Assembly (NCBI GenBank): GCA_035477115.1
Contig: DATIKW010000039.1
Coordinates: 19,405 to 83,404 of the forward strand
Length of the DNA stretch: 64,000 nucleotides
Source of the DNA: Bacillota bacterium
GTDB taxonomy: Bacteria > Bacillota > Sulfobacillia > UBA995
Direction of reading: 5' to 3'
The translations under genes and the position numbers were made by a program. Below are positions 33,714 to 63,756 of the stretch, piece after piece. The number at the start of each line of letters is the position of its first letter. Within the stretch, counting starts at the first letter, position 1. Under the pieces are notes generated by a model. It was not told the origin of the DNA. It did not search any database and was given only the letters and a program-made list of their open reading frames with translations.

Positions 33714-33738
33714 CGCGGACCCACGGCCTCGCCGCCGC

Positions 33739-34527: not shown

Positions 34528-34588
34528 TCTCCCTGCCTCCTTATGGTGCCCTGCGGGGCATGAGGGGCCCACTCCCTGATCGCGCTCT

Positions 34589-37838: not shown

Positions 37839-37854
37839 GCATCACACCTCCGCT

Positions 37855-38421: not shown

Positions 38422-38450
38422 GCTGCCATCCATCCTTTCGCCCGGAGAGG

Positions 38451-39296
38451 TCACAGCATGCGTTCGGCGTGCCGGGCCGCATGGCATTGCAGGTTCACGG
38501 CCACCGGCAGGGCGCCGATGTGGGTCGGCGCGGTCTCGATGTGGACCGCCAGGGCGGTTATCCGCCCGCCCAGTCCCGCCGGTCCGATGCCCAGGTCGTT
38601 GACCGCCTGGAGGATCTCCCGCTCCAGGGCGGCAGTGCTCGGATCGGGGTGAGCGGTGCCGACCTCGCGCAACAGGGCCTTCTTCGACAGCAGGGCCGCC
38701 CGGTCCATCATGCCGCCGACGCCCACGCCGACGACTACCGGCGGACAGGGGTTGGAGCCGGCCCGATCGACGACTTCGACGACGAAGTCGCGGATTCCGC
38801 GGGCGCCCTGGGCGGGGGTGAGCAGCTTGAGCCCGCTCATGTTCTCGCTCCCGGTGCCCTTGGGCACCACGGCGAGGGACAGGCGGTCGCCGGGCACAAT
38901 GTCGATGTACACGATGGCGGGGGTGTTGTCCTGGGTGTTAGCCCGGCGGAAGATCGGGTCGTCCACTACGGACTTCCGCAGGTAACCGGCTTCATATCCC
39001 TGGCGCACCCCTTCGTCGATGGCCGCTTTCAGGTGGCCTCCGGTCAGGTGCACATCCTGTCCGAGTTCCACGAAGACGTGGACCACGCCCGTGTCCTGGC
39101 ACATCGGCATGCGATCCTGGCGGGCGATGGCGGCGTTCTCCAGCAATTCCTCGAGGATCTGCTTGCCGAGCGGCGACTCCTCCGCCTCGCGAGCCCGCGC
39201 CAGAGCTGCTGCTACATCCGGGGGCAAATCACAGTTCGCGGTCAGGCACAGATCCCGCACGGCCTCCGTAACCGATCGGACATGGATCTCCCGCAA
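38451..39296 (-). CDS. class I (Fe-S) fumarate hydratase, alpha subunit
   Basis: Cys ligands in ...RMPMCQDTG... and the CPPVVVGVGVGG region; 281 aa. Confidence 0.85.
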   Translation of the reverse strand: MREIHVRSVTEAVRDLCLTANCDLPPDVAAALARAREAEESPLGKQILEELLENAAIARQDRMPMCQDTGVVHVFVELGQDVHLTGGHLKAAIDEGVRQGYEAGYLRKSVVDDPIFRRANTQDNTPAIVYIDIVPGDRLSLAVVPKGTGSENMSGLKLLTPAQGARGIRDFVVEVVDRAGSNPCPPVVVGVGVGGMMDRAALLSKKALLREVGTAHPDPSTAALEREILQAVNDLGIGPAGLGGRITALAVHIETAPTHIGALPVAVNLQCHAARHAERML

Positions 39297-39452
39297 GCCT
39301 TACCTCCCCCTTCGCCGGCAATGACCGGCGGCGGCTGCCGCCGATCCTGAGCGATCGCCGGCCTTCCCCGGTCTCGATAGTTCGCCGAAGGGGGCGCGGA
39401 ACCTGCCGGTCGTCGCGATGGGGCCATTGTGTTAGATACATCCGGATGATAG

Positions 39453-49872: not shown

Positions 49873-50799
49873 TCAAGAAGGGCGGGGTAACAGCCCCGCC
49901 TCCTCGACGATGCGCGGGACCATCTCCTCCCACATGATGGCCATGATGTGCACGCCGGCGACGCCGGGGATCCGCCGCAGTTCCTGGATGGCTTCCACGG
50001 CGATCTTCACCCCTTCCTCCGGCTGTTTCTTCCGCTCGACCCCTTTCATTCGGGCCAGCAGGGGTTCCGGCACGACCATGCCCGGGACGGTGCTCATGTG
50101 GCGGAGGGCGCCGAAGGACTTGGCGGGGCAGATGCCTCCCAGGATGTAAGTCTTCCGGTCGAGGCCCGCCTCGCGGACCATCTCCATCCACCGGGCGAAC
50201 CGCGGCAGGTCGAAGATGGCCTGGGTCTGGATGAAGCGGGCTCCCGCCGCCACCTTCTTGGCCAGCCGGCGAACGCGGAAAGCGAACGGCTCGGCGAACG
50301 GGTTCTCCGCCGCCCCCACGAAGAAACGAGGCCGGTGCTCGGCGGCGATGGCCTCCCCGTTCTGAAAGACCCCGGGATCCCCGAGGTCCCGAGCCATCTT
50401 CACGAGCTGCACCGAATCCAGGTCAAAGACGTTACGGGCCGCCGCGTGATTGCCGAAGGACTGATGGTCGCCGGTGAGGCACAGGAGATTGCGGGCGCCC
50501 AGGCTGTATGCTCCGAGGAGGTCGCTCTGCATGGCGATCCGGTTGCGGTCGCGGCAAGTCATCTGGATGATCGGCTCGCCCCCGGCCGCCAGGACATGGA
50601 CGGCGGCGGCGATGCTGGACAGGCGGACGATGGCCGTCTGGTTGTCGGTGAGGTTCTGCCCGTCGGTCACGCCCTTGAGCAATGCGGTGTGATGGCGGAT
50701 GCCCTCGGCCTCCGCTCCCTGGGGCGGCCCCACTTCCCCGGTGACGGCGAAGTGTCCCTGCTCCAGCAGACGCTCCAGCCTGCTCCGCTCGGCGCTCAT
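49873..50799 (-). CDS. metF: 5,10-methylenetetrahydrofolate reductase, acetogen-type catalytic subunit
   Basis: MSAERSRLERLLEQGHFAVTGEVGPP...TCRDRNRIAMQSDLLGA..., an MTHFR TIM-barrel. Start trimmed to the ATG at 50799 behind GGGAGGA; overlaps the metV stop. Confidence 0.85.
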   Translation of the reverse strand: MSAERSRLERLLEQGHFAVTGEVGPPQGAEAEGIRHHTALLKGVTDGQNLTDNQTAIVRLSSIAAAVHVLAAGGEPIIQMTCRDRNRIAMQSDLLGAYSLGARNLLCLTGDHQSFGNHAAARNVFDLDSVQLVKMARDLGDPGVFQNGEAIAAEHRPRFFVGAAENPFAEPFAFRVRRLAKKVAAGARFIQTQAIFDLPRFARWMEMVREAGLDRKTYILGGICPAKSFGALRHMSTVPGMVVPEPLLARMKGVERKKQPEEGVKIAVEAIQELRRIPGVAGVHIMAIMWEEMVPRIVEEAGLLPRPS

Positions 50800-51452
50800 A
50801 GGGCGACGTCCTCCCTGACCAGCTTGCGCGGGCCGCCGTCCCTGGCCCGGGACCAGTCCTTGGCCGGCAGCACCACGTCGAGGAGATCGAGGCGGCCGAG
50901 TCCCTCCAGTCGATCGTGTATCTTCTGCCAGGCGCACTCGATCGCCTCGTCAATCTCGCATTTGCCTTGCTGGGAGCCGCCGCAAGGCCCATTGAGCAGG
51001 CTCTTGGAACAACGGATGATCGGGCAGATCCCCCCGGTCAAGTGGAGCACGCAGTCGCCGCAGAAACCGCACCGCTCCTCCCACACGCCGGGCTGGCGGG
51101 CGCCGCCGCCGAAGCGGGTGTCCACCGCCGGGAACACCCAGGTGTGCGGGTAGCGTTCGGCCAGGAACTGCGCCCCCACGCCGCAGGCCATCGATATCAG
51201 ACAGTCGGCTTCCCCGGCCAGGGCGTCCAGGGCTTCCAGGAACTCCCCGTCGCACTGCCGGGTCAGCACGATGGTGCCCAGCTCGAGGTCGGGGCGTGCC
51301 AGGAGGAGGAGATCCCGCAGCAAAGCGACTTCCTTCTCACCGCCGGCATGGCAGACGGTGACGCATTCCGAGCAGCCGGCGATCACCGCCCGGCGGCGCC
51401 CCGCCAGGTTCTCCAGGATGGCGGGCAGGGGTTTGCGCTCGCAGACGATCAA
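50796..51452 (-). CDS. metV: MetV (zinc-ribbon/Cys-rich MTHFR-associated subunit)
   Basis: Cys-rich 218-aa protein (CSECVTVCHAGG...CGFCGDCVLHLTGGICPIIRCSKSLLNGPCGG...). Sits immediately upstream of metF, as in the Moorella hdr-mvhD-metVF cluster. Confidence 0.75.
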   Translation of the reverse strand: MIVCERKPLPAILENLAGRRRAVIAGCSECVTVCHAGGEKEVALLRDLLLLARPDLELGTIVLTRQCDGEFLEALDALAGEADCLISMACGVGAQFLAERYPHTWVFPAVDTRFGGGARQPGVWEERCGFCGDCVLHLTGGICPIIRCSKSLLNGPCGGSQQGKCEIDEAIECAWQKIHDRLEGLGRLDLLDVVLPAKDWSRARDGGPRKLVREDVAL

Positions 51453-51474: not shown

Positions 51475-52311
51475 TCAGTATTCGGCCGGCATCTGCCGGA
51501 GTTGCTCGTAGCTGAAGACCGGGCCGTCCTGGCAGACGTAGCGGGAGCCGATGTTGCACCGCCCGCACTTGCCGATGCCGCACTTCATGCGCATCTCCAG
51601 GGTGGTAATGACCTGGTCCGGGGTGAAGCCCAGTTTTTCGAGATCCTGGAGCACGAACTTGATCATGACCGGCGGCCCGCAGGTGACGGTGACGGCGTTT
51701 TCCGGCCGGGGCGCCAGCTCCCGGAGCACCTGGGGCACGAAGCCGACGCGGCCCTGCCAGGAAGCATCGCCCCGGTCCACCGTTACCTCGAGGGCGAGGT
51801 CGTCCCGCTGCCGCCACCGCTCGAGTTCCCACTTGAAGACCAGATCGCCGGGGCTGCGCGCCCCGTAGATGATGCTGACCGCGCCATACCGGTCCCGGTT
51901 GGCCGGGTCCAGCACGAAGGTGATCAGCGAGCGGAGGGGGGCCAGGCCGATGCCGCCGGCGATGAACACCACATCCTTGCCTTCCATCTCCCGGTAGGGG
52001 AAGTGGTTGCCGTAGGGGCCCCGGATCCCGAGATAATCTCCCGGCCGGGCGTGATGCATGGCCGTGGTCATCACCCCGGCCCGCTTCACGGCGAATTCCA
52101 GGTAACCTTCCTGGGTCGGCGACGAGGTGATGGATATGGGAGCCTCGCCGACCCCAATCACCGATACCTCGGCGAACTGGCCCGGCTCGTACCGGAATCC
52201 ATCCCGCACCTCCGGTTCGGCGAAGGCGACGCGGAAGGTCTTGACGTCCTGGGAAGCGGTCTCGGGGATGACCTCCTGGATGACGGCCAGGTGAGGCAGG
52301 TACGGATTCAA
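51475..52311 (-). CDS. FlxA/HydG-like NAD(P)H:FAD oxidoreductase subunit with C-terminal 2Fe-2S (sulfhydrogenase gamma / NfnA-like)
   Basis: FNR-like FAD/NAD-binding fold (FIAGGIGLAPLRSL) and a C-terminal CGIGKCGRCNIG cluster motif. Start trimmed to the TTG at 52311, immediately after the upstream stop and 7 nt after AAGGGGG. Confidence 0.75.
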   Translation of the reverse strand: MNPYLPHLAVIQEVIPETASQDVKTFRVAFAEPEVRDGFRYEPGQFAEVSVIGVGEAPISITSSPTQEGYLEFAVKRAGVMTTAMHHARPGDYLGIRGPYGNHFPYREMEGKDVVFIAGGIGLAPLRSLITFVLDPANRDRYGAVSIIYGARSPGDLVFKWELERWRQRDDLALEVTVDRGDASWQGRVGFVPQVLRELAPRPENAVTVTCGPPVMIKFVLQDLEKLGFTPDQVITTLEMRMKCGIGKCGRCNIGSRYVCQDGPVFSYEQLRQMPAEY

Positions 52312-53333
52312 GCTCGCACCCCCTTGAGCTGGTCGAGGACCGAGCGGAGGTCCACGTTGGCCGGACAAATCTCCACGCAGCGGCCGCAGCCGACGCAGGC
52401 CGGGCGGCCCCGGCGCTCCGGGTAATAGCAGAACTTGTGCATCAGCCGCTGGCGCATGCGCTCCTTCCCGGTGGTGCGCGGGTTATGGCCGGAAGCGTGG
52501 AGGGTGAAGGCCGGGAACATGCACGAGTCCCAGCGCCGCCAGCGCCGGCCGTCCTCGTCGCCCACGTCGAAACAGTGGCAGGTAGGACACAGATAAGTGC
52601 ACGCGGCACAGCCCAGGCAGCGTTCGTGCAGCCGATCCCATAGCGCGTGCTCGAAACCCCGGGCCAGCGTCGCCTGAAGGTCGACGGGGGGCGAGCCCGC
52701 CAGTCGTTCCCGGGCGCGGGCCGCGACGGCCTCCGCCGCCGCCTGCTGCTCCGGCCGGGCGGGCGGGAGCCCCAGCGGCTCCGTCCAGGCCCGACCCCGC
52801 TCGGTCAGGGGGCGCACCAGGTAGCCGCCGTCCACGGGCACCAGCAACACGTCCAGGCCTTCCTCGCCCAGGGGGTCGCCGCCCGCCGCCGGGCAGAAGC
52901 AGGCCGGGCCGGGCCGGTCGCACCCCAGCCCCACCAGGGTGGCCGCTTGCCGCCGGCCCGCCCAAAGGCCATCGACATGCGGGGGTTCCTCGAACACCGG
53001 ATCGAGCAAGGCCAGCGCCCGGGCGTCGCACGGCCTCACCCCGAAGACCACCATGGGCTGGCCGGAGGGTTCGGCCGGTTGCAGCCGGGGGACGCCGTCC
53101 ACCGTCGCGTAACCGAACAACACCTCGGCGCGGGGGAAGAACACTTCCTTGAGCGTGCGGCGGGTGGGACCGGCTTCCCGGTCGAGACACAGTCCGGGGC
53201 GGTAAGGGATGAAGCCCGAATCCTCGCCCCGTCCCGCCGCCACCCAGGTCGGGCCGCGCTCGGCGGAAGCCGCCAGGACCGCAGGCAGCTGGTCGCGAGT
53301 CAGGAAGACCGCCATGGCAGGCCTCTCCTTCAT
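52308..53333 (-). CDS. FlxB/HydB-like 4Fe-4S iron-sulfur subunit (sulfhydrogenase beta / AsrA-like)
   Basis: CFCPAAGG, CLGCAACTYLCPTCHC and CVGCGRCVEICPANVDL cluster motifs. Start trimmed to the ATG at 53333, which overlaps the upstream stop (ATGA) behind GGGAGGAG. Confidence 0.7.
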   Translation of the reverse strand: MKERPAMAVFLTRDQLPAVLAASAERGPTWVAAGRGEDSGFIPYRPGLCLDREAGPTRRTLKEVFFPRAEVLFGYATVDGVPRLQPAEPSGQPMVVFGVRPCDARALALLDPVFEEPPHVDGLWAGRRQAATLVGLGCDRPGPACFCPAAGGDPLGEEGLDVLLVPVDGGYLVRPLTERGRAWTEPLGLPPARPEQQAAAEAVAARARERLAGSPPVDLQATLARGFEHALWDRLHERCLGCAACTYLCPTCHCFDVGDEDGRRWRRWDSCMFPAFTLHASGHNPRTTGKERMRQRLMHKFCYYPERRGRPACVGCGRCVEICPANVDLRSVLDQLKGVRA

Positions 53334-54268
53334 AGGATGAACTCCTCCCGGTCGTCCGGTCGGAAACTGCCGACCAGGGGGCGCGCCTCCGGGTCGACTC
53401 CCGGGCGGTGGTCGAAGCGTTCGGCGGCCTCCCGCTCCAGCGCCAGGTGGAGGTGACGCAGATCGACGCCCACCGGGCACGCACGGGCGCAGGCGCCGCA
53501 GTCGACGCACCGGCCGGCCAGGTGCATGGCCCGGACGAGATGGAATAGCATCGCCTCCGACGGGTCGGCGGTCGGCCCCAGCAGGGCCGGGGCGGTACGG
53601 TCGGCGAAGCACTCCGCGCAGACGCACATGGGGCATGCCTGGCGGCAAGCATAGCAGGCGATGCACCGTTCGGCCGCCTGCCGGAACTCCTCCCGGCGCT
53701 GCTCGGGCGAAAGGGCGGTCCGCGCGTCGAGCCGTGCGAAGCGGTCGCCTTCGGGAGGGGCGGGCGCCTCGGGCGCCACCCAGTATATCCCGGGATCAGG
53801 CAGCCGGCACCCCTGGCACGCCGGGTCCCGCACTTCCACCCAGGGAAACTCCTCCTGCCAACCGTCCCCCACCACGACCAGGCGGTCGCCGGCCAGGCGA
53901 CCCTCGCGGATCACGCGGTCGGCCAGGCGGGAGGCGAGGGCGCGCCGGGAGATCATGCCCGAACACGGCAGGCCGATGGCCAGCACCCGGTCGCGGGCAA
54001 TCCGATTTTCCCGCACCTGTTCCACCAGCGTCCGGGCTTCGCAGGGCCGGGCGGCCAGCGCCACCCGCTCTTCCTTGAGGCGCCCGAGATATCCGGACAG
54101 GTTATGGTCGCAAGTGGGATCATACACCAGCCGCTCGGCATCCCCCGGCTCCCTGGCGAACAGGGGCGTGGTCCGCAAGGGCAAGGTCCCCCGCTCCCAG
54201 CCCAGCACGAGTTGAACCGTGCCCTCCGCCAGCAGTCGGGCCGCCGTTTCCCGCAGGTTCGCCGTCAA
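53330..54268 (-). CDS. FlxC-like 4Fe-4S iron-sulfur subunit
   Basis: Track ORF 53330..55030 trimmed to the TTG at 54268, which overlaps the mvhD stop (TTGA). C-terminal CIACYACRQACPMCVCAEC and CVDCGACARACPVGVDL ferredoxin motifs. Confidence 0.6.
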   Translation of the reverse strand: MTANLRETAARLLAEGTVQLVLGWERGTLPLRTTPLFAREPGDAERLVYDPTCDHNLSGYLGRLKEERVALAARPCEARTLVEQVRENRIARDRVLAIGLPCSGMISRRALASRLADRVIREGRLAGDRLVVVGDGWQEEFPWVEVRDPACQGCRLPDPGIYWVAPEAPAPPEGDRFARLDARTALSPEQRREEFRQAAERCIACYACRQACPMCVCAECFADRTAPALLGPTADPSEAMLFHLVRAMHLAGRCVDCGACARACPVGVDLRHLHLALEREAAERFDHRPGVDPEARPLVGSFRPDDREEFIL

Positions 54269-54711
54269 GGACAGGATGCTCGCCCCGCTTTCGACAGGAA
54301 TCCCGCCGGCCCCAGCGCCTTCACGTCGCCGACGACCTTGCGGATGACATCGGCGAACTTCTGGCCCTCGGCCGCCGAGACCCAGGAGAATTGCACCCGC
54401 TGTTCCTCCATCCCCACCTGTTCCAGGAGCCGCTTGAGCAAGGCGAACTTGCGCCGCGCCACCAGGTTGCCCGCCAGGTAGTGGCAATCTCCGGGATGAC
54501 ACCCCGAGACCAGCACGCCATCCGCCCCTCGCTGCAAGGCTTTCAGGATGTAGATGGGGTTGACCGCTCCGGAACACGGTACGCGCACCACCCGGACATT
54601 GGGCGGGTACTGCAGGCGGGATATGCCCGCCAGGTCGGCCCCGGCGTAGCTGCACCAGTGGCACAGGAAGGCGACGATCTTCGGTTCCCAGGTCGCACTC
54701 GCCGCATTCAT
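54265..54711 (-). CDS. mvhD: MvhD/FlxD-like hydrogenase iron-sulfur (2Fe-2S) subunit
   Basis: KIVAFLCHWCSYAGADLAG...VVRVPCSGAVNPIYILKALQRGADGVLVSGCHPGDCHYLAGN, the canonical MvhD motif set. ATG at 54711 overlaps the hdrL stop (ATGA). Confidence 0.8.
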   Translation of the reverse strand: MNAASATWEPKIVAFLCHWCSYAGADLAGISRLQYPPNVRVVRVPCSGAVNPIYILKALQRGADGVLVSGCHPGDCHYLAGNLVARRKFALLKRLLEQVGMEEQRVQFSWVSAAEGQKFADVIRKVVGDVKALGPAGFLSKAGRASCP

Positions 54712-57700
54712 AGGAGCGCCGCCACCTCCGCCAGGATCTGTTCCTCGGTGAAGCCGCGGAGCACGATCGCGCCACACCAGCAGGTGGCGGCGCAGGCCCC
54801 GCAGCCCTTGCACAGCGCCTTCTCCACCGCCGCCTTGCCCCGGGCCGGGTCGAGTTTGATGGCCGAGTACTGGCACACGCTCTCACAGGTGCGACAGCCG
54901 CCGCAGCGGGCCTCGCGAACCTCGGCCACGGCCCCTCCGGCCTCGATCGAGTCGCGGGCGATGACCGTAGCCGCCCGGCCCACCGCCGCCAGCGCCTGGG
55001 CCATGCTCTCGGACAAGGTCTTGGGAGCATGGGCCAGCCCCGCGACGAAGACCCCGTCGGTGGCGAAGTCGACCGGTCGCAGTTTGGCGTGGGCCTCGAG
55101 GAAGAAGCCGTCGGCGTTCAGCGGCACTTTGAGCGCCTGAGCTAGTTCGCGGGCGTCGGGCCGCGGGGCGATCCCCGAGGCCAGCACCACCAGGCCCGCC
55201 GGGATGCGCACCGGCATGCCCAGCAAGTCGTCGGTGACCGTCACTTCCCGCCGCCCGTCTTCGCCGGCGGCCACCCGGGGGGGATCATCCTCCGTGTAGC
55301 GATAGAAGATGACGCCCGCCTCCCGCGCCTCGCGGTACTGCTCTTCTTTCAGCCCATAGGTGCGGATGTCGCGGTGGATGACGTGGACCTCGCGCCGGGG
55401 ATCGAGCGCCTTCAACGCCAGGGCATTCTTCACCATGTGCGAGCAACACACCCGGCTGCAGTACGGCCGTTCGGGAGTACGCGACCCCGCGCAGCCGATC
55501 ATGACGATATCGCCCTCCGGCACCCGTCCCCCGGCCAGCGCTTCTTCCAGTTCGAGTTGCGTGATCACCCGGGGGTCAGTGCCGTAGCCGGTATCGGAGG
55601 GCACGGCCGGGAGGGCGCCGGTCGCGACCACCACCACCCCGTGGCGCACGGCGACCTCACCCTCCGGCGTGGCCAGGAGGGTCTCGAAGTTGCCCACAAA
55701 GCCTTCGATGTTGCGGACACGGGATCCGGTGTGCACGGTCACCAGCGGGTGGGTCTTGACCGCCTCGATGGTCCGGGCCACCAGGGCGGGCACATCCTCG
55801 CCCTCCAGCGTCCGGGTCAGCCGGCGGGCCTGCCCTCCCAGCTCGACCTCGCGCTCCACGAGGCCTACCGGGTAACCCTGCCGGGCGAAGGCGAGGGTCG
55901 CGGTCAAGCCGGCCATGCCGCCCCCGATCACCAGCGCGGCCCGCGTCACCGGGACAGGCACCCGGTACAGCGGTTCCAGGTGGCGGGCCTTGGCCACCGC
56001 CATCGCCAACAGGTCGCGGGATTTGGCCGTGGCGGCGTCGGGATCGTGCATGTGCACCCAGGAACACTGGTCGCGGATGTTGGCCATCTCGAACAGGTAA
56101 GGGTTCAGGCCGCCCTCGCGGATGCTCTGCTGAAATAACGGCTCGTGGGTCCGCGGCGAGCAGGAAGCCACGACCACCCGATTGAGGTCGTGCTCCTCGA
56201 TGAGCTGCTTGATGCGGTCTTGCGTGTCTTGCGAGCAGGTGTACAGGTTGTCCTCGACATGCACCACGTACGGCAGACCGCGCGCAAAGTCGGCCACTTC
56301 CTTGACCCGGACGACGCCGCCGATATTGATGCCGCAGTGGCACACGAACACGCCGATCCGGGGCGGGCGGTTGGCCACGGCCCGCTCGAGGGGGTACTCC
56401 TTGTGCCGGACGAGTTCGCCGCGGCTGGAGGCGAGCACCGTCCCCGCTTCCGCGGCGGCGGCGCTGGCCTCCACCACCGTCTCGGGTATGTCCTTGGGGG
56501 CGGCGAAGGGGCCGGCCACGAGGATGCCGGGACGGGAAGTGCAAGTCGGCTTCCCGGAGGGGGTGCGGGGGAAACCGTGCCGGTCGGTGCTGATCCCCAG
56601 CCGCTCGACCAGTTCGACCATGGCCGGTTCCGGCCGCATGCCCACCGACAGCACCACGAGATCGAAGTCCTCCCGGGCCGGCCGGCCGTCTTCCCCGGCA
56701 TAATGCACGGTGAGGTCCCCCGGGGCGCCGCCGGCTTCTACCGCCTCCACCCGGCTGCGTACCAGGCGCACCCCGTACTCCCGCTGGGCGCGGTTCAGGT
56801 AGTGCTCGAAATCCTTGCCGTAGGCGCGCATATCCATGTAGAAGATGCTGATCGCCAGTTCCTCGGCCGAGTGCTCTTTGGCGATGACCGCCTCTTTCAG
56901 GGCGTACATGCAGCACACGGAGGAGCAGTATCCCTCGCCGTGCCGGAGGTCCCGCGAGCCGATGCATTGCAGGAAGGCGATGCGCCGCGGGACCTTGCGG
57001 TCCGACGGCCGCACCACATGCCCGTCGTAGGGCCCGGAGGCCGACAGGATCCGCTCGAACTCCATGCTGGTGACGACATTGGGGTGGCGCCCGTAGCCGA
57101 GCGGTACGAGGTCCTCCGGGGCGGTGGTGGCGAAGCCCGGACACAGGATGACCGCCCCTACCTTCAACTCGACCTCTTCGGGCGCCATGTCGTGGACGAT
57201 GGCGCGAGCCTGGCATACCCGCTCGCACTCCCGGCACTCGGCGCAGACGCCGCAGTCCAGGCAGCGCCCAGCCTCGGCCATCGCCGCCTCCTGGCTCAGC
57301 CCGAGTTCCACTTCCCGAAAGTCGCCTCGGCGGGCTACGGGATCGAGTTCCGGCATGGCCGCGCGCGGCGCCCGTGCCTCACCCCACGGCACCGGCCCCA
57401 CGGCCGGGGCCGGGACGGGCCGAGCGGCGATCGGGATCTCTCCGTCCAGGTGGCGGCGGATGGAGGCGGCGGCCCTGCGGCCGGCGGCGATGGCTTCGAC
57501 GGCCGTGGCCGGACCGGTCACCGCGTCGCCGCCGGCGAACACACCCGGGCGGGCGGTGGCGAGCGTCTCCGGGTCGGCCGCCAGGTTGCCCCACCGGTCG
57601 GTCATCCCCGGCGGGGCGAAGGCGGTGTCCGGCGTCTGACCGATGGCGACGATCACCTGGTCCGCCTCGAGGGTGAAGTCGGAGCCGGGCACGGGCACCG

Positions 57701-59111
57701 GCCGGCGCCGGCCCGAGGCATCGGCCTCGCCTAGCTGCATGCGGAGGCAGCGCAGGCCCTGCGCCTGACCTTCGCCCAGCACGGCGGCAGGCGCGGTGAG
57801 GAACCGGAACTCGATCCCTTCCTCCTCGGCGGCCGCCACCTCGTGGGCTGCGGCCGGCATCTCCCCCCGGGACCGGCGGTACACCACGGTGACGCTGCGG
57901 GCGCCCAGGCGAAGGCTGCTGCGGGCGGCGTCGATGGCGACGTTGCCGCCGCCGATCACCAGCACCTGCCGGCCCACGGTCACCGGCTCGCCCAGGTTGA
58001 CCTGCCGCAGGAACTCCACCCCGGATACCACGCCCGGGACATCCTCGCCGGGCACGCCCAGCTTCTGATCCCGGTGGGCCCCGACCGCCAGGAATACCGC
58101 CTGGTAGCCGCCGGCGGCCAGATCGTCCAGGGTGAAGTCGCGGCCCAGAGCTGTCCCGGTGCGGATCTCCACCCCCAGGCGGGCGATCTGATCGATCTCC
58201 GCCCGCAGGATGTCCCGCGGCAAGCGGTATTCGGGGATGCCCACGGTCAACATCCCGCCGGCTACCGGCAAGGCCTCGAACACGGTCACGGGGAAGCCGT
58301 CGAGGGCCAGGTAATGGGCACAGGTCAGTCCCGCGGGGCCGGAGCCCACCACCGCCACCCGTTCCCGGCGCGGCGCGGAACATTCGGGCAAGGCGATTTC
58401 GCCGGCATGCTCGAGTTCATAGTCGGCAATCATCCGCTTCAGCGGGCGGATGGCCACCGGTTCGTCGAGTAGCCCGCGGCGGCATGCCGCTTCGCAGGGG
58501 TGGTGGCAGACCCGGCCGCATACGGCGGGGAAGGGGTTATCGCGCTTGACCAGAGTCACGGCTTCCTGGAACTTGCCGGCGGCGATCAGGGCGACATACC
58601 CCTGGGCATGCACCCCCGCCGGGCAAGACACCTGGCACAGGGGCCGGTCGGCCTTGTCGATGGCGAAGGCATTGGGGTAAGCCTGGGGGAAGGGCCGGAA
58701 AATGGCCTTGCGCAGGTTGAGCCCGCCCTCATACTCGTTGGGCAGCCGGACCGGGCACTCTTTCTCGCAGTCGCCGCAGCCGGTGCAACGCGCGAGATCG
58801 ATGTACCGGGGCCGGCGCCGCACCCGAACGGTGAAGTTGCCCGGCTCGCCGGCGATGTCCAGCACTTCCGAACCGGTGAGCGTCTCGATGTTCAGGTGGC
58901 GGCCGCACTCCACCAGCTTCGGCGACAGGATGCACATGGCGCAGTCATTGGTCGGGAAGGTCTTGTCCAGCCGGGCCATGGTCCCGCCGATCGAGGGCGA
59001 CTTCTCTACCAGGTAAACGTAGAAACCGGACTCGGCCAGGTCCAGGGCGGCCTGCATCCCGGCGATGCCGCCTCCTACCACCAGGGCCGCGCCGGTCACG
59101 CCGCCGCTCAT
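54708..59111 (-). CDS. giant HdrA-family fusion (HdrL-like): HdrA module + GltD/NfnB-like NAD(P)H oxidoreductase module + ferredoxin + second HdrA module, 1467 aa
   Basis: Module 1: GGGIAGMQAALDL (FAD), CTGCGDCEKECP, CQVSCPAGVHA, CGRVCHHPCEAAC. Module 2: VAVVGSGPAGLTCAHYL ... VIGGGNVAIDAA (GltD-like). Ferredoxin CLDCGVCAECRECERVC. Module 3: VFVCHCGINIGGVV, ALVIGGGMAGLTA, CAGSRTPERPYCSRVCC, C-terminal CGGCRTCESVC...CKGCGACAATC. Confidence 0.85.
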   Translation of the reverse strand: MSGGVTGAALVVGGGIAGMQAALDLAESGFYVYLVEKSPSIGGTMARLDKTFPTNDCAMCILSPKLVECGRHLNIETLTGSEVLDIAGEPGNFTVRVRRRPRYIDLARCTGCGDCEKECPVRLPNEYEGGLNLRKAIFRPFPQAYPNAFAIDKADRPLCQVSCPAGVHAQGYVALIAAGKFQEAVTLVKRDNPFPAVCGRVCHHPCEAACRRGLLDEPVAIRPLKRMIADYELEHAGEIALPECSAPRRERVAVVGSGPAGLTCAHYLALDGFPVTVFEALPVAGGMLTVGIPEYRLPRDILRAEIDQIARLGVEIRTGTALGRDFTLDDLAAGGYQAVFLAVGAHRDQKLGVPGEDVPGVVSGVEFLRQVNLGEPVTVGRQVLVIGGGNVAIDAARSSLRLGARSVTVVYRRSRGEMPAAAHEVAAAEEEGIEFRFLTAPAAVLGEGQAQGLRCLRMQLGEADASGRRRPVPVPGSDFTLEADQVIVAIGQTPDTAFAPPGMTDRWGNLAADPETLATARPGVFAGGDAVTGPATAVEAIAAGRRAAASIRRHLDGEIPIAARPVPAPAVGPVPWGEARAPRAAMPELDPVARRGDFREVELGLSQEAAMAEAGRCLDCGVCAECRECERVCQARAIVHDMAPEEVELKVGAVILCPGFATTAPEDLVPLGYGRHPNVVTSMEFERILSASGPYDGHVVRPSDRKVPRRIAFLQCIGSRDLRHGEGYCSSVCCMYALKEAVIAKEHSAEELAISIFYMDMRAYGKDFEHYLNRAQREYGVRLVRSRVEAVEAGGAPGDLTVHYAGEDGRPAREDFDLVVLSVGMRPEPAMVELVERLGISTDRHGFPRTPSGKPTCTSRPGILVAGPFAAPKDIPETVVEASAAAAEAGTVLASSRGELVRHKEYPLERAVANRPPRIGVFVCHCGINIGGVVRVKEVADFARGLPYVVHVEDNLYTCSQDTQDRIKQLIEEHDLNRVVVASCSPRTHEPLFQQSIREGGLNPYLFEMANIRDQCSWVHMHDPDAATAKSRDLLAMAVAKARHLEPLYRVPVPVTRAALVIGGGMAGLTATLAFARQGYPVGLVEREVELGGQARRLTRTLEGEDVPALVARTIEAVKTHPLVTVHTGSRVRNIEGFVGNFETLLATPEGEVAVRHGVVVVATGALPAVPSDTGYGTDPRVITQLELEEALAGGRVPEGDIVMIGCAGSRTPERPYCSRVCCSHMVKNALALKALDPRREVHVIHRDIRTYGLKEEQYREAREAGVIFYRYTEDDPPRVAAGEDGRREVTVTDDLLGMPVRIPAGLVVLASGIAPRPDARELAQALKVPLNADGFFLEAHAKLRPVDFATDGVFVAGLAHAPKTLSESMAQALAAVGRAATVIARDSIEAGGAVAEVREARCGGCRTCESVCQYSAIKLDPARGKAAVEKALCKGCGACAATCWCGAIVLRGFTEEQILAEVAALL

Positions 59112-59599
59112 GTCGTCTCCCCCACCTCGGCGAACAGTCGCTTGAGGTTGCCCGGATCGGGAGGGCCGGCGGCCGCTTTATCCCGCGCCAGGGCGCGCGC
59201 CGCTCCCAGCCTCAGTTGCTGAGCCAGATCGTCCATGGCTTTCAGCCGGGCGGGGAAAGACGGGTGCACGTAGCCGCGTTCGACGGCCAGTTCCCGGAGC
59301 ACGCCCATGACATCGGTGAACTTCACATCCTGAGGGCAGCGGGCATAGCAGGTAAAGCACAGCGTACACAACCAGATCAGGTCGGAGGTCAGCACGTCCT
59401 CCTCCAGTCCCAGGAGCACCATGCGGATGATGCGCCGGGGATTGTAGGCGCCGTCCACTTCCGCCACCGGACAGCCGGCCGTGCACACCCCGCAGCCGAA
59501 ACAAGCCTTGATGGCCTGGCCCCCGGGGCGCGCGGCCACCTCGTACTTGAACCTGGGGCTGACCAGCCGGGCGGGACTCGCGCTTGCCGCCGCCTTCAT
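59108..59599 (-). CDS. hdrC: HdrC-like 2x[4Fe-4S] subunit
   Basis: CFGCGVCTAGCP and CTLCFTCYARCP motifs. Trimmed from track ORF 59108..59965 to the ATG at 59599 behind GGGGGAGGGG; overlaps the upstream stop. Confidence 0.8.
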   Translation of the reverse strand: MKAAASASPARLVSPRFKYEVAARPGGQAIKACFGCGVCTAGCPVAEVDGAYNPRRIIRMVLLGLEEDVLTSDLIWLCTLCFTCYARCPQDVKFTDVMGVLRELAVERGYVHPSFPARLKAMDDLAQQLRLGAARALARDKAAAGPPDPGNLKRLFAEVGETT

Positions 59600-59985
59600 G
59601 ACCCCTCCCCCTTCCCGATGGCGTCCACCTGCCGCCGCATCTCCCGCGCCGCCCGAGCCAGGCGGGCCGCGCCCGCGGGTGAGGCGAACTCCAGCCGCAC
59701 CCTGGCGGGGTCCACCCCGGCTTCCTTCAGCAATCCGCGCAGGTATTCGATCCGGCGGCCGGCCACCAGGTTCCCCTGCAGGAACTCGCACGCCTCTTCG
59801 AAACACCCTACTACCATCACGCCGGCATAGCCCCGGGTGAGGGCGCCCGTCACATGCAGGACGTCGACCCTGCCCGAGCAGGGCACGGGGGAGAGCGTCC
59901 AGCCCGGCGGCCAGAAGCCGCCGGCCTCGGCCTCCTCGACGGCCCGCAAGGCGGAACGTTCGCATACGAAAGCCAGGAGCTTCAT
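59596..59985 (-). CDS. MvhD-like iron-sulfur subunit, divergent second copy
   Basis: AFVCERS...PVPCSGRVDVLHV...VVGCFEEACEFLQGN, a variant MvhD motif (GCxxxxCxF instead of GCHPGDCHY). 129 aa. Confidence 0.7.
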   Translation of the reverse strand: MKLLAFVCERSALRAVEEAEAGGFWPPGWTLSPVPCSGRVDVLHVTGALTRGYAGVMVVGCFEEACEFLQGNLVAGRRIEYLRGLLKEAGVDPARVRLEFASPAGAARLARAAREMRRQVDAIGKGEGS

Positions 59986-61157
59986 GCCGTCACCCCCAGC
60001 CGGCCGTATATCGCTTCATCGGTGGAGGACTGGATGGTGATGGCCAGCGCCGGACAGGCGGCGGCACACACCCCGCAGCCGCGGCAGGCGGCCGGGTCGG
60101 GGACGGCCACCACCAGGATCCCGGCCGGATCGGGTTGGATGGCGATCGCCCGGTGCGGGCACAGCCGTACGCAGGTGAGACATCGGGCACAACGCTGTCC
60201 GTCCACCCGCGCTCGGGCTTCCTCCGCCGGCTGCCGGAGGAAGGCGGCGACCGCGGCGGCGGCCGCCCGACCGTCGCCCAGGCACCCCTCCAGGTCGAGG
60301 TCGGCCCGGAGACTGCCGGCGAGGAAGATGCCGGGCCGAGGACTGCGGCTCCCAAGGCGCACATTGGCCCGGGCGGGCCCGAGGTCGATGCCTTCCCCCC
60401 GCGGCGCCTCCCGCTCGTCGATGGCCGCCAGGTCGAGGGTGACGCCCACCGGCAGTCCGTCAACCCCTGCCTCGAGGAAGAATGAGTCGCCGTCGTCTTG
60501 GAGCTTCAGGGGGTGCGCCCCTTGCTTGAAGAAGGTAACGCCCAGGTCGCGCGCCACCCGGTACCGGGCATCCAGACCGTCGCCGGCCACCCGCAGGTCC
60601 CGGCCGAACCAGGTGACCTCCGCCGCGAAATCGCGTCGCGCGGCAATGGCCAGGTTGAGGGCGGCCGCATGCTGGCGGCGGCTATCGGCGGCCGAGCCGT
60701 CGAGGAAGAGGCCGATGCGGCGGCCGCGCAGGCGGGCGATGGCGGTTTCCGGCCGGCCCAGCAGCTCGGCCAGCATCGACAAGCCGAGCACGCGAGGGCC
60801 CGGCTTCAAGCCGTGCGCCTCCGGCACGGGTATCCGCTCCACCCCCATGGCCAGGACCACGGCACGGGCCTCGCCCGGCCTGCCGTCCAAGTCTAGCTGG
60901 AACCGGCCCGGTCCGCCCCGGACGGCGCGCAGCCGGGTGCCGGGCAGCACCTCGACAGGGCTGAGATCTCCCTCCAGTTCGGCCAGCAGGCGGCGGTCAT
61001 CCGCCGGCGACCCGAGGTACCCGGGGAGGCTGCGCAGGGTGCCGCCGAGGGTGGATTTCGCCTCCGCCAGGGCGACCTGATGGCCCAGGCGGGCCAACGC
61101 GCCGGCGCAGGCCAGGCCGCTGGCGCCGCCGCCCGTGACGAGGATATCGGCCTTCAT
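59982..61157 (-). CDS. HdrA-like FAD oxidoreductase with C-terminal 2x[4Fe-4S] ferredoxin (half-HdrA, C-type)
   Basis: ADILVTGGGASGLACAGALA FAD motif; C-terminal CARCLTCVRLCPHRAI and CRGCGVCAAACPALAI. Start trimmed to the ATG at 61157 behind GGGAGGTG. Confidence 0.7.
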   Translation of the reverse strand: MKADILVTGGGASGLACAGALARLGHQVALAEAKSTLGGTLRSLPGYLGSPADDRRLLAELEGDLSPVEVLPGTRLRAVRGGPGRFQLDLDGRPGEARAVVLAMGVERIPVPEAHGLKPGPRVLGLSMLAELLGRPETAIARLRGRRIGLFLDGSAADSRRQHAAALNLAIAARRDFAAEVTWFGRDLRVAGDGLDARYRVARDLGVTFFKQGAHPLKLQDDGDSFFLEAGVDGLPVGVTLDLAAIDEREAPRGEGIDLGPARANVRLGSRSPRPGIFLAGSLRADLDLEGCLGDGRAAAAAVAAFLRQPAEEARARVDGQRCARCLTCVRLCPHRAIAIQPDPAGILVVAVPDPAACRGCGVCAAACPALAITIQSSTDEAIYGRLGVTA

Positions 61158-62170
61158 CCGACCTTCACCTCCCAGCGAGCGGCCGCGCCGGCCGCAGCCG
61201 CGGTCGCGGCAGCCCGACCGTGAGCAATGCTGTCGGCCAGGGTGCGCGGTTTCTGGCAGCAACCGGCCAGGAACACCCCCGGCCGGGACGATAGCCAGTT
61301 GGCGCCGGGTTGGCCGGCGAAGAAACCGGCGGCATCCAGGTTGATCCCCAGCGCCCGGGCCAGGGCCGGGGCGTCGGGGCGCGGCCAGATGCCTACGGAC
61401 AGGACCACGCCGTCGAATGCCTCGCGGCTCACGGCCGCCTGGCGGACATCGTCGTACACCAGCGTGAGCCGGCCGTCCGCTTGGCCGACCCGGGCGGGTA
61501 TCCCCTGGACCAGCCGGATCTTCTCCCGCGCCTGCTCATACAGGTTGTGGGTGATGCGCCCGGCGGTCTGCAGGTCATTATAGAAAATGCTGATTTTGAG
61601 GTCAGGGCGATCGACCAGCAGGCCGAGCGCCAAGCGCAACGCGTAAGGACAACACACCTCCGAGCAGTAGTCCCGGCCTCGCGCCGGGCAGCGCGAGCCC
61701 ACACACTGCACGAAAGCGAGTTGCCCCCCGGTCGGCGGCTCGCCCCTCCGGACCGCCTGCTCCAGGTCGGTGCCGGTCAGGACGCCGGGCAGCCGCCCAT
61801 AGCCCAGGTCGGGCCATTCGGCGGCGGGGGCCGGCGTCATCCCCGAAGCCACGATGATCGCCTCGGCCTCCAGGACGCCGTCGCTCAACTCGACGCGAAA
61901 TGCGCCCGGCCGACCCTCCAAGGCCTGGAGGGTCGTGCCCGTCCGCACGGTGGCGGCGGATGCGGCGAGTTCCTCCCGGAGATCGGACACGAGGCACACG
62001 CCGCAGTGCAGGCAGCGGTCGGTGGCCTTGCAGGCGTAAGCAATCGCCTGGCCGCCGAGCCGTGGTTCGCGCTCGACCAGGATGACCTCACAGCCCAGTT
62101 GGCCGGCGGCGACGGCGGCAGCCATCCCCGCCACGCCTCCTCCTATCACCAGTATCCTCTCAGCAACCAA
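61154..62170 (-). CDS. HdrA-like FAD oxidoreductase (half-HdrA, N-type)
   Basis: ILVIGGGVAGMAAAVAAGQLG, CLHCGVC and CVGSRCPARGRDYCSEVCC (the HdrA CSxVCC-type motif). Confidence 0.7.
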   Translation of the reverse strand: MVAERILVIGGGVAGMAAAVAAGQLGCEVILVEREPRLGGQAIAYACKATDRCLHCGVCLVSDLREELAASAATVRTGTTLQALEGRPGAFRVELSDGVLEAEAIIVASGMTPAPAAEWPDLGYGRLPGVLTGTDLEQAVRRGEPPTGGQLAFVQCVGSRCPARGRDYCSEVCCPYALRLALGLLVDRPDLKISIFYNDLQTAGRITHNLYEQAREKIRLVQGIPARVGQADGRLTLVYDDVRQAAVSREAFDGVVLSVGIWPRPDAPALARALGINLDAAGFFAGQPGANWLSSRPGVFLAGCCQKPRTLADSIAHGRAAATAAAAGAAARWEVKVG

Positions 62171-62200: not shown

Positions 62201-62968
62201 TCAATCCGAGGTACGGCCGTCCGTCAAGCCCGCCCGAGCGGCGACGGCCCGGACCGCCTGCAGGGCGGCCGAATCCGCCGGCAGCCGGGCCAGCGGTTCC
62301 CCATGGAGGTCGAGGTCGGCCACGTCCCGGTCGTCGGGGATGAAACCGCCAACTTCTAGACCGGTCGCCGCGATGGCATCCTCCAGCGGACGCCGGTCGA
62401 TCACCCGGTTGACCACCAGCCACACCCGACCCGGCTTCAACCCGATCTCGTCGACCAGTTCCCGGATGCGGCCGGCCGTGCGCAAGCCCCGGACGGTGGC
62501 GTCGCTCAGCACGAAGGTCATGTCCATGTCCTGCGCCACGCGGCGCGACAGATGCTCCATGCCCGCCTCGTTGTCTACGACCAGGAAGTCGTAGTCGCGA
62601 GCCAGCGCCCCCAGGTGGTTGCGGATGAGGTCATTGGGGAAGCAGTAGCAGCCGGGCCCTTCGGGCGTGCCCATGCTCAGGAGGTCCAGCCGCGGCGTCT
62701 CCACCAGCACCGAGCGGAGCCGGTATTCGATGAGCTGGCTCTTGGGCATGCCGGCCGGGGGAGGTCCGGGAGCCTTCACCTCCTCCAGCACGTCGGCCAC
62801 CGTCCGGGGGACGGCGATCCCCAGCGCCTCGTGCAAGTTGGAGTTGGGGTCGGCGTCCACGGCCAGGATGGTGCCCCCGGTCCCTTCCTGCAGGGTCCGG
62901 ATGAGCATGGCGGCGAAGCTCGTCTTGCCGGTGCCGCCCTTGCCCGCGATCGCTACCCGTACGGGCAT
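62201..62968 (-). CDS. cooC: CooC-type Ni-insertion ATPase (CO dehydrogenase maturation factor), copy 1
   Basis: MPVRVAIAGKGGTGKTS deviant Walker A, and the CYCFPN Cys motif typical of CooC/AcsF. Start trimmed to the ATG at 62968 behind GGGGAGGGA. Confidence 0.85.
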   Translation of the reverse strand: MPVRVAIAGKGGTGKTSFAAMLIRTLQEGTGGTILAVDADPNSNLHEALGIAVPRTVADVLEEVKAPGPPPAGMPKSQLIEYRLRSVLVETPRLDLLSMGTPEGPGCYCFPNDLIRNHLGALARDYDFLVVDNEAGMEHLSRRVAQDMDMTFVLSDATVRGLRTAGRIRELVDEIGLKPGRVWLVVNRVIDRRPLEDAIAATGLEVGGFIPDDRDVADLDLHGEPLARLPADSAALQAVRAVAARAGLTDGRTSD

Positions 62969-62970
62969 CG

Positions 62971-63756
62971 TTACTCCCTCCCCGGGGTCTCTCCCATCAT
63001 CTCCAGCACCCGCCGGCCCACTTCCTGCACGTCGGCCCACAGTTCGGGAGCGGCGACCGGCGGCGGCCCTCCCGGCCCGGCGATGGACCGTTCCAGCACC
63101 GCTTCATCGTGGCGGAGATGACCGAGGACCTCGATGCCGTCCAGGCGTGACTCCAGGAAAGCCCGTTCGGCGGCGTTGCGGAGCTTGTTGCCTACGACCG
63201 CTACCCGCGGGATGCCCAGGTCGGCCGCAAGGCGGGCGATGGTCCCGGCGGACTTCACGCCGGCCGGGCTGGGCTCACTGACGATGATCAGGAGGTCAAC
63301 GCCGCGGGCGGTACCCCGGGTGAAGCCCTCAATCCCCGCCCCCATGTCCATCACCACCTGGTCCTGTCTCCCCAGGAACAACGCGGTGACCACGGCTCGC
63401 AAGAAACTGGCCTCGCTGCAATAACATTCGCTGCCCCCCGGCTTCACCGCCCCCATGCGCAGCAGCCGGATGTTGCCGTGCCGCACCGAATAGCGGTCGA
63501 GCAGGTCGTCGACCCGGGGATTCAACACGAAGAACAGGCCGCTGCCCGCCCGGTCCTTGACGACCTCCTGCATCTCGATCAGCGGGACCAGACCATCGAG
63601 CGACGCGGGTGGGAAACCGAGGGCGAGACCCAGGCTGGCATCGGGGTCGGCGTCGACCGCATACACCTGATAGCCCTGACCGGCGAGGAACAAACACAAT
63701 CCCGCAGCCAGGGTGGTCTTCCCCGAACCGCCTTTTCCGCCGATGGCCAGTTTCAT
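62971..63756 (-). CDS. cooC: CooC-type Ni-insertion ATPase, copy 2
   Basis: MKLAIGGKGGSGKTT, and the ECYCSEASF Cys motif. Confidence 0.85.
   Translation of the reverse strand: MKLAIGGKGGSGKTTLAAGLCLFLAGQGYQVYAVDADPDASLGLALGFPPASLDGLVPLIEMQEVVKDRAGSGLFFVLNPRVDDLLDRYSVRHGNIRLLRMGAVKPGGSECYCSEASFLRAVVTALFLGRQDQVVMDMGAGIEGFTRGTARGVDLLIIVSEPSPAGVKSAGTIARLAADLGIPRVAVVGNKLRNAAERAFLESRLDGIEVLGHLRHDEAVLERSIAGPGGPPPVAAPELWADVQEVGRRVLEMMGETPGRE

Follow-up and report, generated by a model that had tools for sequence, protein, structure and literature searches.

HdrC without HdrB: a probable Hdr-type methylene-tetrahydrofolate reductase operon in a Bacillota bacterium, and related loci in diverse phyla

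Where does an HdrC protein deliver its electrons when HdrB, the subunit with the cysteine-rich CCG domains, is not encoded beside it? The question is raised by a stretch of DNA of 64,000 nucleotides, here termed the window, from a Bacillota bacterium (GTDB lineage Sulfobacillia; UBA995; GenBank assembly GCA_035477115.1, contig DATIKW010000039.1, positions 19,405 to 83,404 of the forward strand). Four adjoining minus-strand genes in this window (59108-62170) encode two HdrA-type flavoproteins, a protein of the MvhD family and an HdrC-like iron-sulfur protein, and they are followed by genes that lead to metV and metF. A preliminary description, made from the letters of the window without database searches, had pointed to an HdrC without HdrB and suggested that the terminal acceptor is MetF itself. 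On balance, and with some reserve, we regard the four genes as probably encoding subunits of an HdrB-less Hdr-type methylene-tetrahydrofolate (methylene-THF) reductase, with which a Flx-type NAD(P)H dehydrogenase shares the operon.

The absence of a CCG subunit from the operon and from the window, as first proposed, was borne out by each of the searches made. A relaxed regular expression (C-x25-45-CC-x28-42-CxxC) gave no match in any of the six frames of the window, and the only two CCG tripeptides in these frames lie within Arg/Pro-rich off-frames. Pfam scans of 10 proteins of the cluster and of 30 further open reading frames (ORFs) across the rest of the window returned no PF02754. A custom HdrB profile hidden Markov model (HMM), constructed from 27 HdrB ORFs of the related loci described below and run with the --max option on six-frame ORFs of at least 50 aa, had no window match at E <= 10; its sensitivity was such that distant HdrD-type CCG proteins elsewhere were recovered at ~1e-14. 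Regular expression, scans of 40 ORFs and HMM together rule out a mis-trimmed CCG ORF, which the preliminary description had allowed for between 49.8 and 63.8 kb. It had likewise asked whether hdrB might lie just beyond position 64000. A contig from the Logan collection (L001), which carries an identical cooC gene and reaches ~10 kb past that coordinate, encodes there a DUF3786 protein, a 960-aa protein and pilins, with no CCG domain, and so rules out an hdrB just past the window edge. The partner expected of an HdrC, of an Hdr-type methylene-THF reductase and of a FlxABCD-HdrABC complex alike is thus missing from the window and its ~10-kb flank.

The HdrC-like protein itself (59108..59599, minus strand; 163 aa) matches the solved HdrC chain 5ODC_C with E = 1.6e-24, and five HdrC chains rank top among the PDB matches, with the next family following at ~2e-4, a ranking that rules out a generic ferredoxin. 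The description of this gene product as an HdrC-like protein with two [4Fe-4S] clusters is well founded: it has exactly eight Cys (33, 36, 39, 43, 78, 81, 84 and 88), which form two CxxCxxCxxxCP motifs. All eight are invariant over 33 homologues, in which invariant positions number 26 in all. The equivalog model for HdrC, TIGR03290, scores 99.5 bits and does not reach its cut-off of 160, and its match spans only profile positions 1-85 of 144, which correspond to the cluster-binding core.

An alignment of HdrC homologues served as query for a scan in which each species was represented by a single genome; it returned 80 loci with 83 HdrC genes. These loci were annotated in six frames with the window proteins, the CCG regular expression and the HdrB profile, by single-sequence searches of stop-to-stop ORFs, a procedure good for presence or absence and not for exact gene boundaries. 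An hdrB gene lies directly 3' of hdrC in 26 of the 83 cases; the other 57 lack an adjacent hdrB and are termed orphans here. For 54 of these 57 no HdrB match occurs anywhere in the locus (up to 10 kb on each side), and 49 have at least 1.5 kb of downstream sequence. The nearest loci belong to metagenome-assembled genomes (MAGs) of Clostridiales (UBA8125, 94%) and Symbiobacterium (70%), which puts the window into a Symbiobacterium-like lineage of Bacillota; a window gene with a "Germane" sporulation domain agrees with this placement. Orphan HdrCs span more than 10 phyla and occur in Bacillota, Dehalococcoidia, Anaerolineae, Desulfobacterales, Syntrophaceae, Spirochaetes, Planctomycetota, Actinomycetes, Atribacter, WOR-3 and Stahlbacteria. 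Precomputed Pfam labels, available for four contigs (GCA_020725145.1, GCA_964524145.1, DRR027585 and ERZ529318), contain no PF02754; three of the four show the HdrB-less gene order of the window, and GCA_964524145.1 has the rearranged HdrB-less form sHdrA / HdrA-Fd / MvhD / MetV / MetF / HdrC (the first two being the small flavoproteins treated below).

Two of these orphan loci have features of their own. In GCA_964524145.1 (L004, 5523-19991) the compact block is followed 3' of HdrC by genes for NuoE-like and NuoF-like proteins, a 1086-aa HdrA-type protein, MvhD, the small and large subunits of a [NiFe] hydrogenase and HycI, and there, as in the Dehalococcoidia loci L024, L032, L033 and L036, NuoEF and hydrogenase replace the Flx/NfnB entry module. 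A Planctomycetota locus (L027) encodes, ~6 kb downstream, a 551-aa ORF of unusual architecture (13956-15608) that unites two CCG-type motifs with an MvhD domain and matches the HdrB profile with E = 2.6e-5.

In a neighbour-joining tree, orphan and HdrB-partnered HdrCs form two separate clades, and the window HdrC falls within the orphan clade. Both clades retain the eight Cys; where HdrB-partnered HdrCs have a conserved C-terminal segment (Q..Ev.efdNkKR...GLP), the orphans have in its place another conserved pattern, D.f.Q.lR, and the partial match of TIGR03290 is consistent with this alteration. With the spread of the orphans over phyla, these features make HdrB independence look like an old and stable trait of a separate HdrC subfamily. 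To call this HdrC re-purposed, as the preliminary description did, is fair wording, since the HdrB-less proteins are a clade of their own with a changed C-terminal segment; the annotation "heterodisulfide reductase subunit C" is misleading for them.

The two genes upstream of MvhD2 and hdrC had been described as a split HdrA pair. Both exist, one with a CSxVCC motif and the other with a ferredoxin tail, and in their alignments they are paralogous flavoprotein modules with complementary losses, not halves of one protein. The product of 61154..62170 (minus strand; 338 aa), which we term sHdrA, can be aligned from residue 5 to 326 with the solved minimal sHdrA 6TJR_A (residues 3-337 of that chain; E = 5e-44); its GxGxxG motif is at residue 10, and at residue 169 it has CSEVCCPYALR, in which Arg replaces the Lys of the CSxVCC....K signature. 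Full-length alignment, a Rossmann motif for flavin adenine dinucleotide (FAD), the CSxVCC cluster site and the absence of N-terminal, inserted ferredoxin and C-terminal ferredoxin domains together describe a complete FAD-binding thioredoxin-reductase-type module of the minimal sHdrA type. HdrA-Fd (59982..61157, minus strand; 391 aa), the start of which overlaps the sHdrA stop by 4 nt, has its own N-terminal FAD Rossmann motif (GxGxxG) and lacks CSxVCC; it bears Pfam Fer4 families at 351-409 and ends in a C-terminal 2x[4Fe-4S] ferredoxin domain with two CxxCxxCxxxC motifs. Its residues 168-387 match HdrA residues 410-646 of 9SFI_A, with weak likeness to the second half of the thioredoxin-reductase domain. 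The separate N-terminal FAD-binding motifs and the full-length alignment of the N-type protein with sHdrA rule out two halves of one HdrA.

The word "split" holds only for the unfused state of these genes. Modules like sHdrA and HdrA-Fd are fused with MvhD in single proteins of 945-989 aa in five loci (L035, L041, L043, L047 and L048), of which four are from Bacillota and contain HdrB and one is from Planctomycetota and lacks it, and HdrA-Fd is fused with MvhD alone in L020 and L053. These fusions make it likely that the products form one physical unit and suggest that sHdrA, HdrA-Fd and MvhD2 of the window constitute a pseudo-heterodimeric HdrA. Double HdrAs have precedents in the 101-kDa two-flavin HdrA of Sporomusa ovata (PMC9430772) and in the tandem or fused heterodimeric HdrAs of anaerobic methanotrophic (ANME) archaea (PMC9012536).

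MvhD2 (59596..59985, minus strand; 129 aa), a [2Fe-2S] carrier, had been singled out as a divergent second MvhD with GCFEEACEF for the GCHPGDCHY of its counterpart MvhD1. The motif difference stands; the implied oddity does not. The protein scores 97.6 bits against PF02662 (gathering cut-off 22.3; E = 6.9e-28), matches 7BKB_F with E = 8e-15, and has four Cys (8, 36, 61 and 66) that align with those of solved MvhD chains; as in all subtype-2 MvhDs, only the first Cys of the CxxC pair is present. Across loci, subtype 1 follows the large HdrA and has an N-terminal CNWC and a nearly invariant GCHPGDCHY. Subtype 2 stands behind the HdrA-Fd module or is fused to it, adjoins MetV, and shows a CExSA-type N-terminus and a variable GC-x4-C-x motif (GCFEEACEF, GCQEGACRH, GCFDEGCHF and others). 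Subtype 2 is found also in HdrB-containing loci. MvhD2 is thus a regular MetVF-associated subtype, and its interpretation as a degenerate copy is ruled out.

The gene 3' of hdrC encodes a giant HdrA/NfnB fusion of 1467 aa (54708..59111, minus strand) with two HdrA units. Blocks 5-153 and 618-841 correspond to residues 150-298 and 296-518 of HdrA 8RVU_a, and blocks 914-1068 and 1288-1466 to its residues 9-163 and 476-652; residues 156-632 match NAD(P)H flavoproteins of the NfnB/GltD type. Unit 1 accordingly comprises a thioredoxin-reductase domain and an inserted ferredoxin domain that is itself interrupted by the NfnB/GltD NAD(P)H-FAD domain, and unit 2 an N-terminal domain, a thioredoxin-reductase domain and a C-terminal ferredoxin domain. 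Both thioredoxin-reductase domains retain the CSxVCC....K motif with its upstream Glu, and published work takes this Glu and Lys as a signature of flavins that bifurcate electrons. The architecture is that of the 1487-aa, NADH-oxidising HdrA of Moorella thermoacetica (PMC9430772), a type named HdrL in Desulfobacterium autotrophicum (PMC2702500).

With a G+C content of 62-73%, the window contains many spurious ORFs, and coding ones were told apart by third-position GC and domain searches. These define thirteen genes on the minus strand from 63756 to 49873, eleven of them in the order sHdrA, HdrA-Fd, MvhD2, HdrC, giant HdrA/NfnB, MvhD1, FlxC, FlxB, FlxA, MetV and MetF. MvhD1 (54265..54711), the equivalent of FlxD, has CHWC and GCHPGDCHY and matches the NCBIfam model VhuD with E = 1.6e-39. 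The FlxC-like iron-sulfur protein (53330..54268) has a C-terminal dicluster of the Fer4_8/Fer4_17 type and a faint FrhB_FdhB_C match. The FlxB-like protein (52308..53333) resembles sulfhydrogenase beta subunits and AsrA (PF17179 Fer4_22, E = 9e-31; NCBIfam ShyB/HydB, E ~1e-40). The FlxA-like protein (51475..52311) is an NAD(P)H-binding flavoprotein with a [2Fe-2S] domain, similar to sulfhydrogenase gamma subunits and AsrB (FAD_binding_6, NAD_binding_1 and DHODB_Fe-S_bind; PRK08345, E = 2e-78). MetV (50796..51452), the Cys-rich small subunit of methylene-THF reductase, matches PF12225 with E = 2e-35, and a search of solved structures with it found no relative; MetF (49873..50799), the catalytic subunit, matches PF02219 with E = 5e-36. 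Each junction between sHdrA and FlxA is a 4-nt start/stop overlap (ATGA or TTGA), including those of the MvhD1 start with the giant HdrA stop and of the FlxC start, a TTG, with the MvhD1 stop, and the MetF ATG likewise overlaps the MetV stop by 4 nt. The genes from sHdrA to MetF therefore form one translationally coupled operon.

Two CooC-type nickel-insertion ATPases of the CbiA/ParA family precede these eleven genes. The first (62971..63756, minus strand; ORF start MKLAIGGKGGSGKT; PF01656 CbiA in an identical protein) probably opens the transcription unit, and the ATG of the second (62201..62968, minus strand; 255 aa; PF01656 on the identical Logan contig) lies 2 nt past its stop. At the other end, a gene for a DAO-family FAD-dependent oxidoreductase of 390 aa (48665-49837, minus strand; PF01266, E = 6e-70), which begins 36 nt beyond the MetF stop, may extend the operon; it is not at the matching position in the Symbiobacterium MAG (L002) or in L086.

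The genes and their distribution amount to a parts list and its conservation, from which we infer the following electron path. NAD(P)H would be oxidised at FlxA, at the NfnB-like domain of the giant HdrA, the Moorella orthologue of which has NADH:benzyl viologen activity, or at both, and electrons would pass through FlxB, FlxC and MvhD1 to the bifurcating FAD in the giant HdrA. The low-potential branch would reduce ferredoxin. The high-potential branch would run from a CSxVCC [4Fe-4S] cluster to the two HdrC clusters, as it does in the solved HdrABC-MvhAGD complex according to the account given in PMC9012536. The distal HdrC cluster would then pass its electron to another iron-sulfur protein instead of the disulfide-reducing clusters of HdrB. 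MetV is the likeliest and most economical recipient, because two [4Fe-4S] clusters have been predicted for it in published work and it would feed the MetF flavin, from which methylene-THF would be reduced; transfer from HdrC to MetV could be direct or by way of the unit of sHdrA, HdrA-Fd and MvhD2, which is also the alternative recipient. The entire chain would be reversed in an organism that oxidises acetate syntrophically. In S. ovata, pull-downs show that MetVF contacts HdrA and MvhD, the homologue of this unit (PMC9430772).

Several observations bear on whether HdrC indeed feeds MetVF, and they do not all point the same way. In 36 of the 57 orphan cases the gene just upstream of HdrC is that for MetF, which supports transfer to MetVF, and in 42 MetF occurs somewhere in the locus; the order metV-metF-hdrC, the commonest, is kept in HdrB-containing Bacillota loci, where hdrB then follows. 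That MetF is the direct electron acceptor in place of a heterodisulfide, as had been suggested, is plausible on this gene order. A more general proposition, that the HdrB-independent HdrC marks a widespread "HdrAC" class of flavin-based electron-bifurcating complexes in which MetVF is wired directly through HdrC and not through a disulfide, is one that we advance only tentatively and judge somewhat more apt to be wrong than right. What weighs against an assignment to MetVF is that orphan HdrC is tied more tightly to large HdrA than to MetF, because orphan loci without MetF exist. MetF is missing from ten orphan loci for which 3 kb or more of upstream sequence is available, and HdrC / large HdrA / MvhD units without MetF occur in L021, L026, L029, L037, L052, L056, L058, L063, L067 and L081. 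One of these, in Thermodesulfobacteriota (L029, 9944-16940), comprises an orphan HdrC, a 953-aa double HdrA, MvhD, an MvhG-like protein, an MvhA-like [NiFe] hydrogenase and HycI and is hydrogenase-linked, with neither HdrB nor MetF within 10 kb; as a set it is Mvh-Hdr-like, with no visible high-potential acceptor. L087 has a nine-gene Hdr/Flx unit without MetVF, and a MetF-less type in WOR-3 and Stahlbacteria consists of FlxCBA, HdrC and giant HdrA. The step from HdrC to MetV is moreover one that we infer from gene order only; the tree is a simple neighbour-joining one without support values; and the 80 loci are the nearest relatives of the window HdrC, so that the ratio of 57 to 26 is no population frequency. 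To these points is added the span of the HdrB negative, which covers ~74 kb of the source genome (the window plus ~10 kb), and the case of Acetothermia, in which HdrBC is encoded apart from metVF-hdrA-mvhD (PMC9586279).

Part of this evidence would also fit if HdrC belonged to the NAD(P)H-oxidising giant-HdrA/Flx module and, as a two-cluster connector common to the large HdrA proteins of bacteria, gave electrons from its distal cluster to partners that vary (sHdrA / HdrA-Fd / MvhD2 here, hydrogenase elsewhere), with MetVF as one of several ends that makes no direct contact with HdrC. The HdrC stop overlaps the start of the giant HdrA by 4 nt; of the 39 loci whose sequence reaches far enough downstream, 28 have an HdrA of at least 900 aa directly 3' of orphan HdrC; the ten loci listed above have HdrC / large HdrA / MvhD units without MetF, and L087 its Hdr/Flx unit without MetVF; and three CSxVCC sites, one in sHdrA and two in giant HdrA, could each dock HdrC. 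The preponderance of the MetV-MetF-HdrC order, and its retention in HdrB-containing Bacillota, speak for MetVF as partner and lead us to regard a connector without direct MetVF contact as unlikely, if a contender to be taken seriously. The orphan HdrC is first of all a partner of large HdrA, and MetVF is its commonest, not its sole, context; the arrangement of orphan HdrC and large HdrA equals the hdrC-hdrB-hdrA order of Moorella with hdrB removed.

A more conventional possibility, that an HdrB or HdrD-type CCG protein from elsewhere in the genome joins in trans to give an ordinary HdrABC-MvhD-MetVF complex with scattered genes, gains from the limited stretch of genome inspected, from the frequent lack of co-localisation of Hdr subunits (PMC6085437) and from the Acetothermia precedent. 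We nevertheless consider it improbable: the orphans form a clade in which the C-terminal segment of HdrB-partnered HdrCs has been replaced, TIGR03290 stays below its cut-off with 85 of 144 positions matched, HdrB matches are lacking within ~10 kb in 54 of 57 orphan loci from more than 10 phyla, and the HdrB-using clade has hdrB directly after hdrC in all 26 of its 26 cases. That the missing hdrB is an artefact of assembly or gene calling, or HdrC a decaying remnant, might be entertained for a high-GC, metagenome-like window with many spurious overlapping ORFs; the 4-nt overlap of HdrC with giant HdrA, however, leaves no gene-sized gap, the identical arrangement recurs in Logan SRR9289417, UBA8125, JGI 3300029892, DRR027585 and ERZ529318, and the invariance of eight cluster Cys and 26 positions in all over 33 homologues is contrary to decay, so that this explanation can for practical purposes be dismissed. 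We retain the assignment of the four genes to an HdrB-less Hdr-type methylene-THF reductase.

These results bear on how methylene-THF reduction is coupled to energy conservation in acetogens and syntrophic acetate oxidisers. Since a natural, conserved form in multiple phyla does without HdrB and keeps HdrC, the HdrAs, MvhD and MetVF, the core coupling may need no disulfide site. Were the tentative "HdrAC" proposition true, disulfide chemistry would be dispensable for Hdr-type methylene-THF reductases, and the "second substrate" sought for the Moorella and Sporomusa enzymes need not be a thiol/disulfide couple; glutathione and lipoate have been negative as thiol/disulfide co-substrates (PMC9430772). 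An operon with its own NAD(P)H entry module would be a simpler experimental system, suited to heterologous expression and cryo-electron microscopy. Where a search for bifurcating MetF complexes makes HdrABC a requirement (PMC6085437 is an example), HdrB-less clusters will be missed.

The surroundings of the operon add observations of a different kind. The two tandem CooC-type ATPases (62201-63756, minus strand) lie 5' of the hdr genes, followed outwards by the DUF3786 gene beyond 64000 (L001, 9290-9919). No acs or carbon monoxide dehydrogenase genes occur in the window; in L002 and L086 a full acsB/C/D/E-RACo-cooC set lies directly upstream of the same hdr operon, and the Wood-Ljungdahl cluster has therefore apparently been broken up in the window lineage. 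A RACo-type reductive activator of corrinoid proteins (Fer2, Raco_middle and RACo_C_ter) is encoded at 32094-33761 (minus strand), ~29 kb from the cooC/hdr cluster, beside a gene with a "Germane" sporulation domain and genes for succinyl-CoA ligase, malic enzyme and fumarase (33739-39299). Two paralogous pairs of ABC_tran_2 and ABC ATPase genes (17009-19485 and 23615-26091, minus strand) flank a stretch of lower GC (~62% at 20-22 kb) that holds an SPFH/Band-7 gene and ORFs without Pfam match. The remaining minus-strand genes of note encode a 1423-aa secreted-type subtilase (Peptidase_S8) with CarboxypepD_reg and CARDB domains (26219-30490), a BcrAD/BadFG-type ATPase with a DUF2229 CoA-enzyme-activase domain, cut by the 5' edge of the window (1-2226), tandem PmbA/TldD metallopeptidases (5776-8618), and two proteins of 578 and 386 aa (12268-14004 and 30882-32042) that have coding-like third-position GC and no Pfam family at E <= 1e-4.

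Among the closest known systems is the HdrCBA-MvhD-MetVF "Hdr-type" methylene-THF reductase of M. thermoacetica (Mock et al. 2014, as presented in PMC9430772 and PMC5736913). The window shares with it MetF, MetV, MvhD, HdrC, an HdrA of ~1470-1490 aa with a GltD/NfnB insert in the first of its two units, a Wood-Ljungdahl context (cooC here, acs genes in L002 and L086) and the succession of hdrC and then hdrA; MetF and MetV together with MvhD and a multi-flavin HdrA in one transcription unit are what an enzyme of this type would be expected to have. It differs in the lack of HdrB, in the extra sHdrA, HdrA-Fd, MvhD2 and FlxABC-like genes, and in an HdrC of a different clade with an altered C-terminal segment. 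The 101-kDa HdrA of S. ovata, which has two thioredoxin-reductase-like flavin modules and no inserted ferredoxin domain, matches sHdrA plus HdrA-Fd (PMC9430772) and also resembles the 945-989 aa fusions in L035, L041, L043 and L047; in the window these modules and MvhD are three genes, HdrB is absent, and a Moorella-type giant HdrA and Flx genes are added. With the FlxABCD-HdrABC system of Desulfovibrio vulgaris (Ramos et al. 2015, as cited in PMC10553843) the operon has in common FlxA, FlxB, FlxC, FlxD/MvhD, an HdrA-type flavoprotein and HdrC, so that the Flx genes stand complete beside hdr genes and HdrABC does not; it departs from that system in having no HdrB and hence no site for DsrC or another disulfide, in the double-unit HdrA with its NfnB insertion, and in ending in MetVF.

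QmoABC of sulfate reducers offers an accepted precedent for an HdrC-type module that needs no HdrB to reduce another flavoenzyme: the complex includes a pair of HdrA-like flavoproteins, of which the second bears an MvhD-like domain, and passes electrons to AprAB by direct contact (PMC3333476). The resemblance of sHdrA, HdrA-Fd and MvhD2 without HdrB to this complex is architectural only. QmoC contains a membrane domain, an HdrE-like cytochrome b, for which the 163-aa window HdrC, a dicluster core with a short tail, has no counterpart. This HdrC reaches 69.6 bits with the NCBIfam model qmoC (cut-off 300; positions 10-103 of 360), no Qmo-specific model is among the best 25 of 49 and the best 25 of 50 matches of the two flavoproteins, and apr genes are absent. 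A true Qmo complex is ruled out by the NCBIfam scores and the missing membrane domain. The sHdrA of Hyphomicrobium denitrificans (6TJR) has the same minimal build as ours, with FAD, one [4Fe-4S] cluster and no ferredoxin domains, and the sulfur-oxidising sHdr system to which it belongs has two HdrB and two HdrC, a context absent here. HdrA3-6 and HdrA9-13 of ANME archaea likewise include paired paralogues that have lost complementary domains, and a ferredoxin domain into which an NfnB stretch of ~500 aa is inserted (PMC9012536), but these clusters are archaeal, usually keep HdrBC or HdrD, and in ANME-1 are not linked to MetVF (PMC9012536).

Surveys have assumed HdrABC where MetFV-MvhD occurs (PMC6085437), and other described clusters contain HdrB or a fused HdrBC (PMC5736913, PMC7325909). 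In the literature, of which our coverage was partial so that an earlier mention is possible, we found no description of an HdrB-less HdrC beside MetVF. The consistent absence of HdrB, the dedicated HdrC clade, and the union of Sporomusa-type and Moorella-type HdrAs with Flx and MetVF in one operon appear to be undescribed. The components are nonetheless all of known kinds, represented by the Hdr-type methylene-THF reductase, Flx-Hdr, HdrL, heterodimeric HdrA and sHdrA.

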